Notes under the pieces: generated by a model | Databases searched by the model: none | The model's input: the letters and a program-made list of their open reading frames with translations, nothing else | What the model was told of the DNA's origin: nothing | Program-made: the position numbers and the translations under genes | Shown: positions 4,808 to 13,553 of the stretch, one piece after another | Position numbering within the stretch: position 1 is the stretch's first letter | Layout: every line of letters begins with the position of its first letter | Source of the DNA: Deltaproteobacteria bacterium | Lineage (GTDB): Bacteria; Desulfobacterota; Binatia; Binatales; Binataceae | Direction: 5' to 3' | NCBI GenBank assembly: GCA_021801125.1 | Contig: JAJYYI010000042.1 | Location: 2,975-66,974, forward strand | DNA length: 64,000 nt

Positions 4808-5686
4808 CTACCTGATCCTGCCAAGTTCACGCGACCTCGCCGCCGCGGCTCGAACCGCGCCGGCAACGACCGTGGTAAAACCCTGCTGCGAAAACGCGCT
4901 CAACGCGGCCTCGGTGGTGCCGCCAGGCGAGGCGACCATCCGAATCAGCTCGTCCGGGCCGAGCCCCGACTCTCGCATCATCGCGACCGCCCCGAGGAGC
5001 GTTTGCAGCGTCATCTTAAGCGCAAGCCGCGGTTCGATTCCTTCGCTCGCCGCGGCGTCGGCTAACGCCTTAGCGAATAGGTAAACGTACGCGGGGCCAC
5101 TGCCGGAAAGAGCCGTGACACCATCCAGCGCCGCTTCGTCTTTTATCGCCACGGCTTCGCCGACTGCACCGAAGATCTTTAGCGTCAGCGCCTCGTCGGC
5201 GGTGCTGGCGCGCGCTCCGCGCACCACGGCCGCCATCCCGCGCCCGACCATCGCCGGGGCGTTCGGCATGACGCGTACGACCCGTGCCAATGAGCCTAAT
5301 TGCCCCTCTAAGTGATTGAGTGTGATGCCGGCGGCGATCGAAATGAAAAGCCGGCCGGCTTTGGGTTTGCTTTTGGCGCTGCTGCGCGCCGAAACTGATC
5401 GACCAGCCTGCGCTTGAGAGGTTTGTTCGAGCGCGCGCTTCGCATCTTCAAGCACGGTGTCGATTATCTGAGGTTTTACCGCGACCACGATCGCCGGAGC
5501 GTTGACGATAACCTCCGGGTTTTTAGTCGTCGTCTCGATGCCCAGCGTGCGCGCCAGTTTTTGCCGGCGCTTGGGCTCGGGGTCGGCGGCGATGATTTCG
5601 GTTGCCTTGAAGACCTTCTTTTCGAGCAGGCCGCGGATCAACGCCTCGCCCATATTGCCTGCGCCTATGAATCCAAGTTTCTTCAT
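4808..5686 (-). CDS. proC: Pyrroline-5-carboxylate reductase
   Basis: GFIGAGNMG, AVKPQ, RVMPN, ALSGSGPAY and VASPGGTT motifs. Confidence 0.95.
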   Translation of the reverse strand: MKKLGFIGAGNMGEALIRGLLEKKVFKATEIIAADPEPKRRQKLARTLGIETTTKNPEVIVNAPAIVVAVKPQIIDTVLEDAKRALEQTSQAQAGRSVSARSSAKSKPKAGRLFISIAAGITLNHLEGQLGSLARVVRVMPNAPAMVGRGMAAVVRGARASTADEALTLKIFGAVGEAVAIKDEAALDGVTALSGSGPAYVYLFAKALADAAASEGIEPRLALKMTLQTLLGAVAMMRESGLGPDELIRMVASPGGTTEAALSAFSQQGFTTVVAGAVRAAAARSRELGRIR

Positions 5687-9458: not shown

Positions 9459-10148
9459 ATGGCAATGAGTGCAAAAAGGTTTAAGGCGATCTTTTTCGAC
9501 CTGGACGGGACCTTGATTGACATCCGCGGGCCGCTTTACGCCTCCGTGCGGTACGCTTTTGATTGCATGGGTGCGGAGCCGGCGCTGACCCGCGAGCGCT
9601 ACGAGGAACTGCTTCTGCGAGAGGGGTTGTCGCTGGGCGTGGCGGAATCACAAAGACGGCAATATGCCAAGCTCGTCCTATCACACTTCATGGCCCAAGC
9701 TCAGGACGCGCAATTCGAGATCCTTCCCGAGGTTCCCGAAGCGTTGACCGAGCTTAAGCGGCGCAATTACACGACGGGCGTCGTGACGAGCCGCCCCGGC
9801 GACGCGGAGGCGATTAGCTATAAGCTCAACGCTTGCGGTTTGGCCGGGCTGCTGGACCACGTGCTCACCGCGCGCATCAACAACCTAAGCGCGCTCGATA
9901 AGACAGAGAGCCTCGCCCTTGCGTGCGAGCGTGCGGGCGTCTTGTCGGCGCATTGCGCATACGTCGGCGATGAGCCGCGCGATACGATGGCGGCACGAAA
10001 TGCCAAGTTCGGCATGGCTATCGCGGTAGCCACCGGTGCTGCCGGTTTCGAGCATCTGCGCGGCCATCCCGAGTTCAAGCCTGGTCATGTGCTGCACTCG
10101 ATGGGGCAGCTCCCCGAACTGATGGCGCGCCTGGACCTCGACGATTAA
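9459..10148 (+). CDS. HAD family hydrolase (phosphoglycolate phosphatase-like)
   Basis: FDLDGTL motif I, VTS motif II, YVGDEPRD motif IV. Confidence 0.85.
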   Translation: MAMSAKRFKAIFFDLDGTLIDIRGPLYASVRYAFDCMGAEPALTRERYEELLLREGLSLGVAESQRRQYAKLVLSHFMAQAQDAQFEILPEVPEALTELKRRNYTTGVVTSRPGDAEAISYKLNACGLAGLLDHVLTARINNLSALDKTESLALACERAGVLSAHCAYVGDEPRDTMAARNAKFGMAIAVATGAAGFEHLRGHPEFKPGHVLHSMGQLPELMARLDLDD

Positions 10149-10345
10149 AACGGCTGGGCTGGCGCCGGACTTAAGCAACCGCGCATTCGTCTGATTCCCA
10201 ACGAAAAGAGATTAGCGGTCAGGCAAGCGAATACCTGTCCGGCGCGCGCTGAAGCCTCGGCGCTGATCGCTGTCAGGACCGAGCGACATGAGTTCGCGAT
10301 AATTCTCACCTGACTCACTTGCTCGACCCTCGCGCCGCAAGACGG

Positions 10346-10861
10346 TCAGCGCGTGAGCGCGGCGATTACTTTGTCGACTGCAGCCTCGGCTTTGGCCTTC
10401 ATCTCCTCATTGGTCGCATCCTGGATTGGATGGGGGACGAAGATCCGTCGCACCTCCGGCAAGCCGAGGGCGTCGGCCTGCCTTTGCGCAGCTTCAACGA
10501 AAACGTCCGACGCCAAGAAGACCGCCGGCTTAGCGCTGGTTTCAAACCATATTGAGTCGTGCACACTGCACGTCGTGCACGACCCTCAATCGGCGAGGGC
10601 TTCGATTACGAAGTCGTTCTCCGCGGCGATAGTGCGCCTTAGCTCTTCCGGCGCGGGCTTGGTAAAAGTCGGCTTGCGGTACCGGTTGAATTTCACTTCC
10701 GGCAGCCGCTCGCTGAGCAACTCCGCGAGCCGATCCAGAAAGACGTCGCCGCGCGGTTTGCTGATATCGAGCAGAGCCACGGCGCCGTGAAGTTGTGGCG
10801 TCCGTGCGGCAAGAGTTCGTCTTACCGGCACACGCTCGTCGGTCGGATCGATTATCTCCAT
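10346..10861 (-). CDS. UGSC-family selenoprotein (171 aa, Sec92 encoded by in-frame TGA at 10586-10588)
   Basis: ORF-track pieces 10586..10882 and 10346..10564 share a frame: ...IEALAD-(TGA)-GSCTTCSVHDSIWFE...; SECIS hairpin directly after the UGA; GAGGAGG RBS before ATG 10861. Confidence 0.9.
10554..10585 (-). promoter_or_regulatory. Bacterial SECIS element
   Basis: Directly 3' of the UGA: GGGUCGUGCAC-GACGUGCAGU-GUGCACGACUC. This gives an 11-bp stem with one G-U, a bulged G, a short upper stem and an apical loop starting with G. Confidence 0.85.
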
Positions 10862-10868
10862 GGTTTGC

Positions 10869-12482
10869 TCACACCTCCTCAATCACGCGGCTTACGCTTC
10901 GCGCGGCGGCCCTGTCGTACCATCCGGCGAAAATCGCCGTGAATTTTCCGGCTTCGCCGCCGGCGACGACAATGTTGATTCCTTCCGCCTCGCGGAACTT
11001 CGGGATGCGGCGCGCCAGATCGGCGGTTGTCGGCTCCTTGATCCCTAGGACTCCGGGCGCCGTTCCGACCGCGCACTCGGAACTCGGCAGCAGTTCGGAA
11101 AGCGGCCGAGCCGTGATCTCCTGAATTCGTTCGCGCACCTGAGTTTTGGTCCATCCGTCGCGGGCAAATACGGCGGCGTGCTCCGGCGCGACCACGATCA
11201 GCACCTCCGGCTCGTAGTCATGCGCCTTGGGATGCCCGCAGGCCTCGAGGCCCAGACCCAGGCTTGCGGCGAGCGAGCTTGCAGTGCGCGACGTTTGATC
11301 CCAAACCTGGCGCGAGCCGGACTCGAGGGGAAAGACGGTAACCACGCTTTGCTCGGGCTTAAATCCGCGCTCCACGTGAAGCGGTTCCCACGGAGTCCGT
11401 TCTTCCCATTCCGCGAAGCAGGTCGTGTATTTGCCGGCAGAGCCTAGCGTGGTTTGCTCAACTTCGCCTGGGCGTGCTCCGCCGAGATTGCGCATCACGA
11501 GCTTCAACGCGCGCCCGATCGTGGCATTGGCGCGGTTCCCGTACCCGAGCACCATGCGTCCCATATTCATCACGATCCTATGGCGAATCGGGCCGTTGAC
11601 GACAATCACCGGTGTTGCACCCCAAGTCGTCGCCATCACGCCGTGGACGTTGAACTCGGGGGTGCATGCCGCCTCAAGGGCGGCGAGCACCACGGGCAGA
11701 TATTCGGGTTTGCACCCGGCCATCACAGCGTTCGCCGCAACCGTTTCGACGGTCGCCGGGGCCATGTTCGGCGGCACGATTGCGACCACTTCCTGCGCGT
11801 CGCGCCGCGTGCCCTTCAGCATCGCCACCACACGCTCCGGCGTTGGGGGTATCACCGGAAGGCCGTCAGTAAGCCCACGCTCGAACATGAATTCGAACGG
11901 GTCCTCGGCCGAGCCCAACTCGATTCGGCGCGCCCGCAAGCGCGAGCCTGACGCTTCCGCTTCAAGCCGCTGCGCCGCTTGGGGCTCGAGCGACTTCGAG
12001 CCGCATCCCGCGCGCCAGGCTGGATAGCTGTTCCAATCAAGCGCCGGTTCGGCAACGCCCGCAAGCGCGGCAAATTCCTTGAACGTGCTGCGCCACTCGT
12101 CACGCACGAAGCCTTCGAGGCGGCGCAATTCGCTCCCGTCCGCTCGCACCAGGACGATCGTCGGTACGATTTCAATCGCGAAGCCGTAGGAAACCTTCAA
12201 CGCCGAGTCGTCGAGCATCGGAACTTCGAGCCCGTGGCGCGCGACCAACTTAAGGTTGCCTTCGCGCTCCTGGCCGATCGCCCATATATCGGCCTTCGCA
12301 CGCATCGCACGAAAGGCCGCGTCGATCAACGGCACCGAAAGGTCGCACGTCGGGCAATCCTCCTTGACGAAGCAGAGCATCGCGGGACGCTCCCCTGGAA
12401 AGGTGCGTTGCGTTCCTGCGGCATCGGTCAAGATGAACGGAGGCAAATTGTTTGAACTTCGTTGTGTCCCCACGCCGAGCAT
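10869..12482 (-). CDS. Thioredoxin/AhpC-TSA (CPTC) domain fused to an uncharacterised 'TDGLPVIPPT' domain; partner of the UGSC selenoprotein
   Basis: CFVKEDCPTC and IVPT (cis-Pro) thioredoxin-fold marks; GCGSKS linker; TDGLPVIPPT, NAVMAGCKPEY and NRANATIGRA blocks; stop lies 7 nt before the selenoprotein ATG. Confidence 0.8.
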   Translation of the reverse strand: MLGVGTQRSSNNLPPFILTDAAGTQRTFPGERPAMLCFVKEDCPTCDLSVPLIDAAFRAMRAKADIWAIGQEREGNLKLVARHGLEVPMLDDSALKVSYGFAIEIVPTIVLVRADGSELRRLEGFVRDEWRSTFKEFAALAGVAEPALDWNSYPAWRAGCGSKSLEPQAAQRLEAEASGSRLRARRIELGSAEDPFEFMFERGLTDGLPVIPPTPERVVAMLKGTRRDAQEVVAIVPPNMAPATVETVAANAVMAGCKPEYLPVVLAALEAACTPEFNVHGVMATTWGATPVIVVNGPIRHRIVMNMGRMVLGYGNRANATIGRALKLVMRNLGGARPGEVEQTTLGSAGKYTTCFAEWEERTPWEPLHVERGFKPEQSVVTVFPLESGSRQVWDQTSRTASSLAASLGLGLEACGHPKAHDYEPEVLIVVAPEHAAVFARDGWTKTQVRERIQEITARPLSELLPSSECAVGTAPGVLGIKEPTTADLARRIPKFREAEGINIVVAGGEAGKFTAIFAGWYDRAAARSVSRVIEEV

Positions 12483-12674
12483 CTTAGCGCTTGGGCGCGG
12501 GCGGCGAAAGGATTGGCACGAGCCGGCGCCGGCGCACCGTTGCTGCCAGCTTTCGAAGAAACCGACGTAAGCACTCGTCGATGCAGGCGGTCAGCCGTGA
12601 TCCGCGGTCAGTTTCGCGACGTACCGAAGCGAAGTCTCAGCCGCGCAATAAGCGGCCGTCAATTTTTGTCGCAG

Positions 12675-13553
12675 TCAGCCCTCGCGCTGAGCGAGCGCGA
12701 GAGCCAGCTCCGCGCGCATCGCTTGCGCGGCGCGCCGCGCCGCCTCCGGCGGCTTCCTGCTCGTGTCGTTCCGATACGCATACATGATCGCGCGGCTGGC
12801 ATTGACGACCACGCCCGGAGCCGGCGCGTCGGAAGCGGCAGCCAAAGCGTCGGCGGCGCTCGCGCCTTGGGCGCCGTAACCGGGCACGAGGATCAGCGCT
12901 CGCGGCATCAGGATGCGCGCGCGTTCAGCGTGAGCCGGATAGGTCGCGCCGATGACCGCGCCGACGGAGCTGAGTCCCGCTTCGCCGACAAACGGCTCGC
13001 CCCATTTATGGACCTGTTCCGCGACCAGTTCCCACAACGGACGGTGGGGGGCCGGCAGATCTTGGAAGTCGCCCGACGACGGATTCGAGGTCTTGACCAA
13101 AACAAAAAGACCGCGCCCGCTTTCTACATACGGCAGAAACGGCGCGATCGCGTCGGCGCCAAGGTAGGGATTTATCGTCATCGCGTCGCTCGCGAAGTTG
13201 CCCCGACCCAAGAACGCCTCGGCGTAAGCGGCGGAGGTGGAGCCTATATCGCCGCGCTTTGCGTCCGCGATAACCGGCAAGTCCAATCGGCGAGTGAAAG
13301 CCATCGCCTCGGCGAGCGCCCGCATCCCGTCGAGTCCCCGCGCCTCGAAAAACGCCAGTTGGAATTTAACCGCTACGACTTGGTCAGCGCAGGCTTCGAT
13401 GATCTCCGAGCAGAAGCGGTTCAGCGAATAGTCGGTCGGCACGCCGGGCGCTTGCGGGCTGTCTAGCTGTGGGTCGACACCGAGCACGAGCACGCTTTGC
13501 TTGGCTTGTGAAAGCTCGGTTACACGGTCGGTGAAATTCATCGACGAAATCAT
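12675..13553 (-). CDS. pyrF: Orotidine-5'-phosphate decarboxylase (subfamily 2)
   Basis: LGVDP, DAKRGDIGST, KTSNP, VIGAT, PGYGAQG and NASR motifs. Confidence 0.95.
   Translation of the reverse strand: MISSMNFTDRVTELSQAKQSVLVLGVDPQLDSPQAPGVPTDYSLNRFCSEIIEACADQVVAVKFQLAFFEARGLDGMRALAEAMAFTRRLDLPVIADAKRGDIGSTSAAYAEAFLGRGNFASDAMTINPYLGADAIAPFLPYVESGRGLFVLVKTSNPSSGDFQDLPAPHRPLWELVAEQVHKWGEPFVGEAGLSSVGAVIGATYPAHAERARILMPRALILVPGYGAQGASAADALAAASDAPAPGVVVNASRAIMYAYRNDTSRKPPEAARRAAQAMRAELALALAQREG

Follow-up and report, generated by a model that had tools for sequence, protein, structure and literature searches.

Among the systems closest in design to the locus described here are glycine/sarcosine/betaine reductase protein B and D-proline reductase, in which a UxxC selenoprotein works alongside a larger protein that binds the substrate and is the product of an adjoining gene, and the Se-S form that arises is re-reduced by a thiol system (PMC11229817). 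The UGSC selenoproteins were described by Zhang and Gladyshev as the "UGSC-containing protein" (PMC1976440 and PMC2398784). The family ranks among the most abundant selenoproteins of aquatic metagenomes; the Global Ocean Sampling (GOS) survey yielded 255 UGSC sequences and ranked the family as the top selenoprotein in several non-marine samples (PMC2398784). In the passages that name it in papers from 2007 (PMC1976440), 2008 (PMC2398784), 2022 (PMC9312934) and 2026 (PMC13188914), UGSC appears as an abundant selenoprotein with no function assigned, and the last of these, a review, still lists it as a protein of unknown function. We analyzed a two-gene module on the reverse strand of a 64,000-nucleotide stretch of DNA (hereafter, the window) from a Deltaproteobacteria bacterium of the class Binatia (contig JAJYYI010000042.1). 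The upstream gene encodes a 537-residue protein that joins a thioredoxin-like (Trx-like) region to a 358-residue domain with the motif TDGLPVIPPT (TDGLP domain); the downstream gene encodes a UGSC selenoprotein. The two families form one obligate pair, adjacent or fused. The module had been proposed as an undescribed system when the window was read from sequence alone, and this claim stands in part. UGSC is a named family, and its fusion to a conserved domain, "Unknown_1", possibly the TDGLP domain, was reported in 2008 (PMC2398784). A search of literature available without subscription returned no paper that assigns a function to UGSC or describes the partner family or its fusions to thioredoxin or thioredoxin reductase (TrxR).

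The pairing was very strongly supported by gene neighborhoods. Cultivated carriers include Sulfitobacter sp. M05 and Pseudonocardia bannensis, and PMC1976440 names Hyphomonas neptunium. Among the 80 loci with the greatest similarity to the TDGLP domain, from genomes of groups that included Binatia, Dehalococcoidia, Gamma-, Alpha- and Betaproteobacteria, Acidobacteriota, Actinomycetota, Myxococcota and Spirochaetaceae, 74 carried a UGSC gene on the same strand, and in 71 it started no more than 150 nt from the stop codon. The other six had no UGSC gene within the 4-kb flank, even by profile search, and one of them ends at a contig edge; in all five of the searched genomes whose loci lacked an adjacent UGSC gene, the family was encoded elsewhere. 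Phyletic profiles gave the same picture in samples of 151 genomes from the phylum of the window and 151 from a second phylum, searched at E≤1e-10 for the TDGLP domain and E≤1e-3 for UGSC. The identical 18 genomes had both families in the first sample, as did an identical 13 in the second, and no genome in either sample had just one of the two; these figures are counts and not a statistical test. Copy numbers of TDGLP and UGSC also ran in parallel (6/6, 13/11 and 11/9). With fusions in many lineages, the co-occurrence of the two families across genomes is near-perfect, in agreement with the proposal that they make up one module.

The in-frame TGA of the UGSC gene is genuinely read as selenocysteine (Sec). 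This reading is credible because the source genome has a tRNA-Sec (68.8 bits, cut-off 47) and a SelB (381.9 bits, cut-off 242), because a hairpin lies directly after the TGA, and because the codon is constant in metagenome contigs: contigs of three public runs, possibly the source sample and not independent, covered the codon with no other letter. Translated with TGA as Sec, the frame gives 171 residues with Sec92 in the context EALAD-U-GSCTTCSVHD, and its scores against Pfam PF24696 (160.4 bits, cut-off 25) and NCBIfam NF041046 (163.2 bits, cut-off 125) clearly mark it as a full member of the UGSC family. The codon aligned with Sec92 was TGA in 72 of the 74 homologous neighbors, TAG in one and TGC in one. 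The hairpin folded at -34.2 kcal/mol (z -2.79), with none of 200 shuffles equally good, and its stem (10585..10554) comprises 12 pairs. Across 73 Sec forms (the 72 loci and the window), the five-pair core stem (CGUGC/GCAYG) was invariably present, and synonymous sites within the stem were fixed (codon 97 NCG in 73/73, Cys98 TGC in 73/73 and Ser99 AGT in 68/68). The stem varied merely from G-C to G-U, with no double-sided compensation in these 73 forms, and the case for the hairpin is therefore one of conservation, resting on the fixed synonymous sites. An Rfam search of positions 10200-12700 at E≤1 gave no match. The sole Cys-type (TGC) stand-alone UGSC gene among the neighbors, from a metagenome-assembled genome of Lysobacter sp. 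(L091, 1816-2316), did not have the hairpin codons, reading TCC TGC AGC instead of NCG TGC AGT.

Two further observations concern the same codon. The TAG occurs in the UGSC homologue of Candidatus Blastococcus massiliensis (L087, ~5041-5538), at the position aligned with Sec92 and with the hairpin codons kept; a pseudogene or a sequencing error may account for it, as may some other cause. In addition, assembly contigs break at 10531-10607, which spans the Sec codon and the hairpin, and at 11763-11839, which holds the TDGLP motif, and the summed depth of the metagenome contigs jumps in the same two intervals (for example, 117 vs. ~20, and 51-61 vs. ~18). Near-identical DNA of other organisms in the same samples is probably piling up at these sites.

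The two families also meet within single polypeptides. In many copies, one frame begins with a UGSC part, reads across the Sec TGA and continues as the TDGLP domain, and four loci (L108, L109, L112 and L117) have uninterrupted Cys-type UGSC-TDGLP open reading frames (ORFs), such as L108:6556-8292 and L112:11038-12759, each with a Pfam UGSC match in the same chain. We examined 85 database proteins that have a TDGLP domain and are 628 aa or longer: 25 matched PF24696, 33 carried the thioredoxin-reductase-type domains PF07992/PF00070 and 2 had AhpC/Trx domains; the Trx-fused form is the class of ~530 aa to which the protein of the window belongs. Several long forms are tandem TDGLP duplications. 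This includes proteins of ~680-765 aa (P0126, P0145-P0147, P0167 and P0203; L101, L102, L103 and L105) with a second stretch of ~310-420 residues that has no Pfam match, assigned as duplications because the listed representatives each gave matches in two or three stretches. Many database entries of 420-460 aa have an extra 80-100 N-terminal residues and fit the length expected of fusion genes whose call begins immediately downstream of the TGA, where the open frames span 431-474 aa; they appear to be UGA-truncated calls of fusion genes. The alternative fusions of the TDGLP domain to Trx-like, TrxR-like and UGSC modules back the redox reading proposed from the sequence, with thioredoxin as the source of electrons. 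The Trx-MsrA-MsrB fusion PilB similarly attaches a reductant module to the enzyme that it recycles. The logic of the architecture is the same, with no relation in sequence or fold, and the recycled center of the module described here is a separate selenoprotein subunit.

The TDGLP domain is, by profile searches and structural modeling, a large unnamed family without a convincing structural relative. A search of 1.84 billion representatives recovered 5288 clusters (50% identity) at E≤0.001, of which 1314 were at E≤1e-30. Pfam and NCBIfam scans of 39 members returned no relevant model, sequence and profile searches of the PDB nothing relevant, and a search of the ESM Atlas only the unnamed clusters of the family itself. 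The AlphaFold (AF2) model of the domain had a mean predicted local distance difference test (pLDDT) score of 91.9 and a predicted template modeling (pTM) score of 0.92. Compared with 48,161 representative PDB chains using VIA-align, which barely probed residues 1-200 in its N-terminal two thirds, the model had no match at Z≥8; the best (Z 6.3) was to a chorismate-mutase-like alpha+beta subdomain of 90 residues, over residues 205-346 only. The best Foldseek matches in the PDB were to class I fumarate hydratase, at template modeling (TM) scores of 0.22-0.30 (0.27 for the best global matches) and root-mean-square deviations of 14-18 Å, and VIA scored the iron-sulfur hydro-lyases at Z 4.2-4.8. Iron-sulfur hydro-lyases such as class I fumarate hydratase, L-serine dehydratase and CyuA need three cluster-binding Cys ligands, whereas the TDGLP domain has no family-wide cysteine. 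Neither the structural searches nor the sequence checks matched the large domain to a characterized enzyme unrelated to redox chemistry, in keeping with the role first suggested for it.

The AF2 model of UGSC (pLDDT 92.9) is built of five beta-alpha units; in it, strand 84-90 is followed by Sec92, where helix 93-108 starts. Its similarity to flavodoxin-like and CheY-like proteins was generic (TM ~0.5, Z 9-11). The predicted fold is flavodoxin-like and not a thioredoxin fold, unlike the Trx-like fold guessed for the family in 2008 (PMC2398784). A profile-profile alignment (hhalign) of UGSC with 27 PrdB/GrdB-like selenoproteins placed Sec on Sec over 79 columns, with a probability of 63.6, an E value of 6.7e-5 and a score of 37.5; the score was 14.3 for the reversed control, no higher than 21.3 for any of 30 column shuffles and no higher than 32.8 for any of 30 block shuffles. 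The alignment is suggestive, though not proof, of distant kinship between UGSC and the selenoprotein B of glycine/proline reductases. UGSC matched none of PF07355, TIGR01918 and TIGR04483, also at E≤10. The source genome encodes, outside the window, a second selenoprotein that is itself PrdB/GrdB-like (L099:1039-1938, reverse strand; ~299 aa). It has Sec162 in the context LLVPV-U-PVC-HQSVGL and scored 162.5 bits against TIGR04483 (below the cut-off of 300) and 21.5 bits against PF07355; its single-sequence comparison with UGSC was negligible (probability 0.1), and the signal came from the profile-profile alignment alone. Short PrdB-like Sec proteins were present in 42 of the 151 genomes sampled from the phylum of the window.

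The comparison with glycine and proline reductases has two sides. The shared features are the UxxC selenoprotein with its larger neighbor and, as we propose for UGSC, a Se-S form returned to the reduced state by thiols. Unlike GrdB, GrdF, GrdH and PrdB, UGSC matches no GrdB/PrdB family model. Unlike GrdE and PrdA, the TDGLP partner has no similarity to PF09338, which matched none of 39 TDGLP-domain proteins, and no conserved Cys or Ser that could give a pyruvoyl group. A search for PF09338 in the source genome also found no match, although this search was weak, as its control matched nowhere. Further, the UGSC-TDGLP carriers are mostly aerobes and not Stickland fermenters, and the electrons would come from a fused Trx or TrxR module. 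The GrdA motif of selenoprotein A is CxxU, whereas that of UGSC is UxxCxxC.

Residue conservation separates what is common to the family from what is confined to the Trx-fused group. In 81 aligned Trx-fused sequences, Cys43 and Cys46 were conserved in 75 and 74, Cys160 and Cys257 in 77 each and Cys355 in 76. Four related Dehalococcoidia genes (L070, L082, L083 and L093) replace Cys257 with Ala and Cys355 with Asn together, and keep the CPTC motif, Cys160 and a nearby Sec-UGSC gene (1055 nt away in L082). The same two positions (Cys78 and Cys176 in domain numbering) are often Ala or Val in the fused paralogues; in 27 copies, the Cys257 position was Ala in 11 and the Cys355 position was not Cys in 15. 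The UGSC part of the fused paralogues keeps G-[DHG]-U-x-x-C, but its third cysteine and its H-D pair are often missing. In a wider alignment of 65 diverse members (38 stand-alone proteins and the 27 paralogue copies), the residues shared by 59 or more were D206, G207, P209, P213, T214, A249, M254, A255, G256, G297, N319, G323, R324, E358 and W365, a set that includes neither Cys nor Ser. Judged by these alignments, the family-wide redox element is the UxxC on UGSC only, and the Trx-fused subfamily seems to have gained a relay made up of Cys98 of UGSC together with Cys160, Cys257 and Cys355 of the partner. Because Cys257 and Cys355 are replaced in many fused paralogues, they cannot be universal catalytic residues. 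In the relay suggested from sequence alone, electrons would pass from the CxxC via the linker cysteine (Cys160) to Sec. The linker and "AGC" cysteines are both kept in the Trx-fused group (77/81), but the AGC Cys257 is not family-wide.

We also examined the genes that surround the module. The Sec machinery was among the neighbors, with selB directly upstream in 13 of the 80 loci and selA in 10; identities were checked for selB (L039:1404-3305, 263 bits) and selA (L037:723-2135, 588 bits). Besides these, ORF clustering of the 80 loci grouped only acyl-CoA dehydrogenase-like, short-chain dehydrogenase/reductase-like and CoA-transferase-like proteins, at 8-13 loci, with labels given from N-terminal sequences alone. 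In a Pfam scan of 120 genes beside paralogues, no family was shared by more than four of them. A 20-kb region of a Vicinamibacterales genome with two copies of the module contained FadB-like, MutY-like and other unrelated genes, and the copies in another genome (G034), one with 13 of them, adjoin a glycyl-radical enzyme, two aldehyde:ferredoxin oxidoreductases, a molybdenum hydroxylase, an arylsulfotransferase, a major facilitator superfamily transporter and a flavoprotein. An apparent aldehyde:ferredoxin oxidoreductase after three of the G034 fusions was rejected as wrong; the adjoining genes differ. Genomes carry up to 13 paralogous copies, each beside different catabolic genes, and for this reason the neighborhoods weakly suggest that the family diversified over several small-molecule substrates.

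We give a probability of roughly 0.55 to the reading of the module as a two-subunit, cytoplasmic selenoenzyme that would be fed by thioredoxin and would most likely be a reductase. It builds on four results: the two families are obligately paired and also fused, the signals for decoding Sec are in place, the TDGLP domain has alternative fusions to Trx and TrxR modules, and a defined set of residues is conserved. In this enzyme, the TDGLP domain would be the substrate-binding and catalytic scaffold, with D206, T214, N319, R324 and E358 as its conserved polar residues, and UGSC a small flavodoxin-like subunit with Sec92, the first residue of its U-x-x-C(-x-x-C) motif, presented where a helix begins. 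The Sec92 selenolate would attack the substrate held by the TDGLP domain, and Cys95 would resolve the adduct to yield a Se-S bond. Thiol exchange via Cys98 and/or Cys160 (PGCG) could then pass this bond to the CPTC pair, which thioredoxin reductase would re-reduce with NAD(P)H. We infer which way the electrons flow, in what order the relay runs and that Sec, not the cysteines of the partner, contacts the substrate.

Several observations weigh against this proposal. The genomes behind the phyletic counts are kin, and the events that they record are not independent. The neighborhoods of the 80 loci, the 120 paralogue neighbors, the Vicinamibacterales region and G034 gave no common theme and no clue to a substrate. 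The similarity to PrdB/GrdB is weak, with block shuffles reaching 32.8 against the observed 37.5 and no match to PF07355 or TIGR01918. Four proteins of 859-1486 aa (P0350, P0352, P0354 and P0355) join dockerin domains (PF00404) to distant relatives of the TDGLP domain (28-32% identity, E 1e-12 to 1e-14). Such fusions suggest that one branch of the family is extracellular, at odds with a thioredoxin-fed enzyme. Finally, Cys257 and Cys355 are strongly conserved in the Trx-fused subfamily and are lost together in one Dehalococcoidia group. Joint conservation and loss fit a model in which a cysteine pair of the partner does the chemistry itself.

This last point leads to the main rival, which we consider unlikely, albeit the best placed of the alternatives. 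UGSC could be a mobile electron carrier that reduces a Cys257-Cys355 disulfide, and the TDGLP enzyme would act with its own cysteines. The arrangement would resemble the thioredoxin-coupled arsenate reductase or methionine sulfoxide reductase cascades, with UGSC in the part of the carrier, that is, of thioredoxin or selenoprotein A. Both cysteines are present in nearly all Trx-fused sequences, Ala and Asn replace them jointly in the Dehalococcoidia genes, and Cys257 lies at the start of a helix in the model, a typical site for a reactive thiol. Yet the same four genes still have a Sec-UGSC gene nearby, the UxxC is kept in the 27 paralogue copies in which one or both positions have so often changed, and neither cysteine is among the residues conserved across the 65 diverse members. 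On the alignments, a carrier role would fit the Trx-fused subfamily but not the many paralogues without Cys257 and Cys355.

Less probable still is an antioxidant or repair system rather than a metabolic enzyme, such as a peroxide, sulfoxide or disulfide reductase, in which the TDGLP domain would bind the damaged or oxidized target. The dependence of the module on Trx/TrxR is consistent with such a role, as is the lack of conserved metabolic neighbors around the 80 loci and among the 120 paralogue neighbors. Judging from record titles and the GOS abundance (PMC2398784), aerobic bacteria of water and soil commonly carry the module, and sources annotate homologues as peroxiredoxin, AhpC/TSA or TlpA disulfide reductase. 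These names, however, derive from the N-terminal Trx-like part alone, where the protein of the window is below Pfam thresholds. Genomes with 6-13 copies and differing catabolic neighbors fit substrate diversification better than a housekeeping defense, and the large conserved domain with its D, N, R and E residues has no counterpart in known peroxidases.

The adjacency to selA and selB raises the idea of a role for the pair in handling selenium or sulfur as such, for instance as a carrier of selenide or in its delivery. We regard this as very improbable. Such adjacency is expected if UGSC is a main client of the Sec machinery, and 67 of the 80 loci have no sel gene nearby. Cys-type forms, such as the stand-alone Lysobacter gene and the Cys-type fusions, would need no selenium, and the multi-copy expansion is unlike that of a trafficking factor. 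Nor did we find any support for two unrelated neighbors with the TGA as a true stop or a sequencing error, a negligible prospect given the adjacency, the fusions, the identical phyletic profiles, the conserved hairpin behind a TGA that 72 loci have in the same place, a UGSC family model that spans both sides of the TGA and the agreement among the contigs of the three runs.

The features of the locus are collected in Table 1.

Table 1. Positions of the genes, domains and motifs of the TDGLP-UGSC module in the window.
Feature	Position (nt)	Strand	Basis
Trx-like::TDGLP-domain protein gene	10869..12482	-	ORF, 537 aa, stop codon included
Thioredoxin-like (TlpA/ResA-like) domain, residues ~12-127	12102..12449	-	Weak profile matches
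CPTC redox motif (Cys43, Cys46; residues 43-46)	12345..12356	-	Read from sequence
Cys160, P-G-C-G linker motif (GCGS = residues 159-162)	12003..12005	-	77/81 aligned sequences
TDGLP domain, residues 180-537 (358 aa)	10872..11945	-	E≤0.001 in 5288 clusters; AF2 model
Cys257 (MAGC), helix start	11712..11714	-	77/81 Trx-fused sequences
Cys355 (TTCFAEWEE)	11418..11420	-	76/81 Trx-fused sequences
Shine-Dalgarno-like GAGGAGG for UGSC gene	10874..10880	-	Inside last codons of upstream gene
UGSC-family selenoprotein gene, 171 aa + TGA stop	10346..10861	-	Translation; PF24696, NF041046
In-frame TGA = Sec92, motif D-U-G-S-C-T-T-C	10586..10588	-	Translation with TGA=U; 72/74 homologous neighbors TGA
Selenocysteine insertion sequence (SECIS)-type hairpin directly 3' of Sec codon	10554..10585 (conserved core 10558-10572)	-	Folding and codon conservation

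Both genes are single-copy in the source genome. The sequence-only reading had described a 537-aa protein with CPTC, GCGS and a domain of ~350 aa with three motifs, and translation of the ORF found all of these at the places claimed, with TDGLPVIPPT at residues 205-214, NAVMAGCKPEY at 251-261 and GNRANATIGRA at 315-325. Its account of a 7-nt gap and a ribosome binding site within the last codons of the large gene was likewise borne out; the stop codon of the large gene is at 10869-10871 and the ATG of the UGSC gene at 10861-10859. Relatives of the 537-aa protein made up 7991 of 8000 scored candidates, and those listed were mostly ~530 aa, with 94-100% query coverage. A database copy of the protein (P0002, 503 aa) begins at Met35, which affects positions 12380-12482 of the window; the 537-aa start is the better call because homologues align from residue ~6-18.

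The N-terminal ~125 aa are the part of the large protein that resembles TlpA and ResA, with a CxxC motif and weak matches to Pfam Thioredoxin_2 (E 0.007; 17.1 bits, below the cut-off of 27), NCBIfam ResA (E 0.0016; 18.4 bits, cut-off 170) and, among PDB sequences, ResA 4nmu (E 0.029). Close homologues carry precomputed matches to PF00578, PF08534 and PF13098. TlpA and ResA are membrane-anchored periplasmic proteins of ~170-180 aa. In contrast, the translation of the large protein has no visible signal or anchor, and the Trx-like domain is a quarter of its length; reading both translations by eye, with no predictor, we saw no hydrophobic N-terminal stretch in either protein. The TlpA/ResA label, which is the name that most sources give to the large protein, ignores the 358-aa domain that defines the family.

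The module is flanked by a phosphatase of the haloacid dehalogenase family (9459-10148, forward strand), whose best models, PpaX/phosphoglycolate phosphatase, all scored below their cut-offs, and by a type-2 orotidine-5'-phosphate decarboxylase (12675-13553, reverse strand; 258 bits). Their link to the module appears to be positional only, with no functional hint. A promoter scan found no sigma-70-like site, and terminator-like sites were no more evident than in shuffled sequence.

The module is real and well supported, and it is probably a variant within the thiol/selenol-dependent reductases. A broader claim, to which we would give somewhat less than even odds, is that UGSC and TDGLP constitute a new class of Sec-dependent reductase. 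This class would be a cousin of selenoprotein B whose partner lacks a pyruvoyl group and a solved structural relative, powered directly by fused Trx or TrxR modules, diversified over many small-molecule substrates and widespread in aerobic bacteria of soil and water. The TDGLP family is very large yet has no Pfam or NCBIfam model and is named after its thioredoxin tag, a systematic gap in annotation to which the probable Sec-truncated entries of 420-460 aa add. For UGSC, the pairing brings an obligate partner, a likely supply of electrons from Trx/TrxR and a short list of conserved residues, and thus turns an orphan selenoprotein into a testable enzyme.

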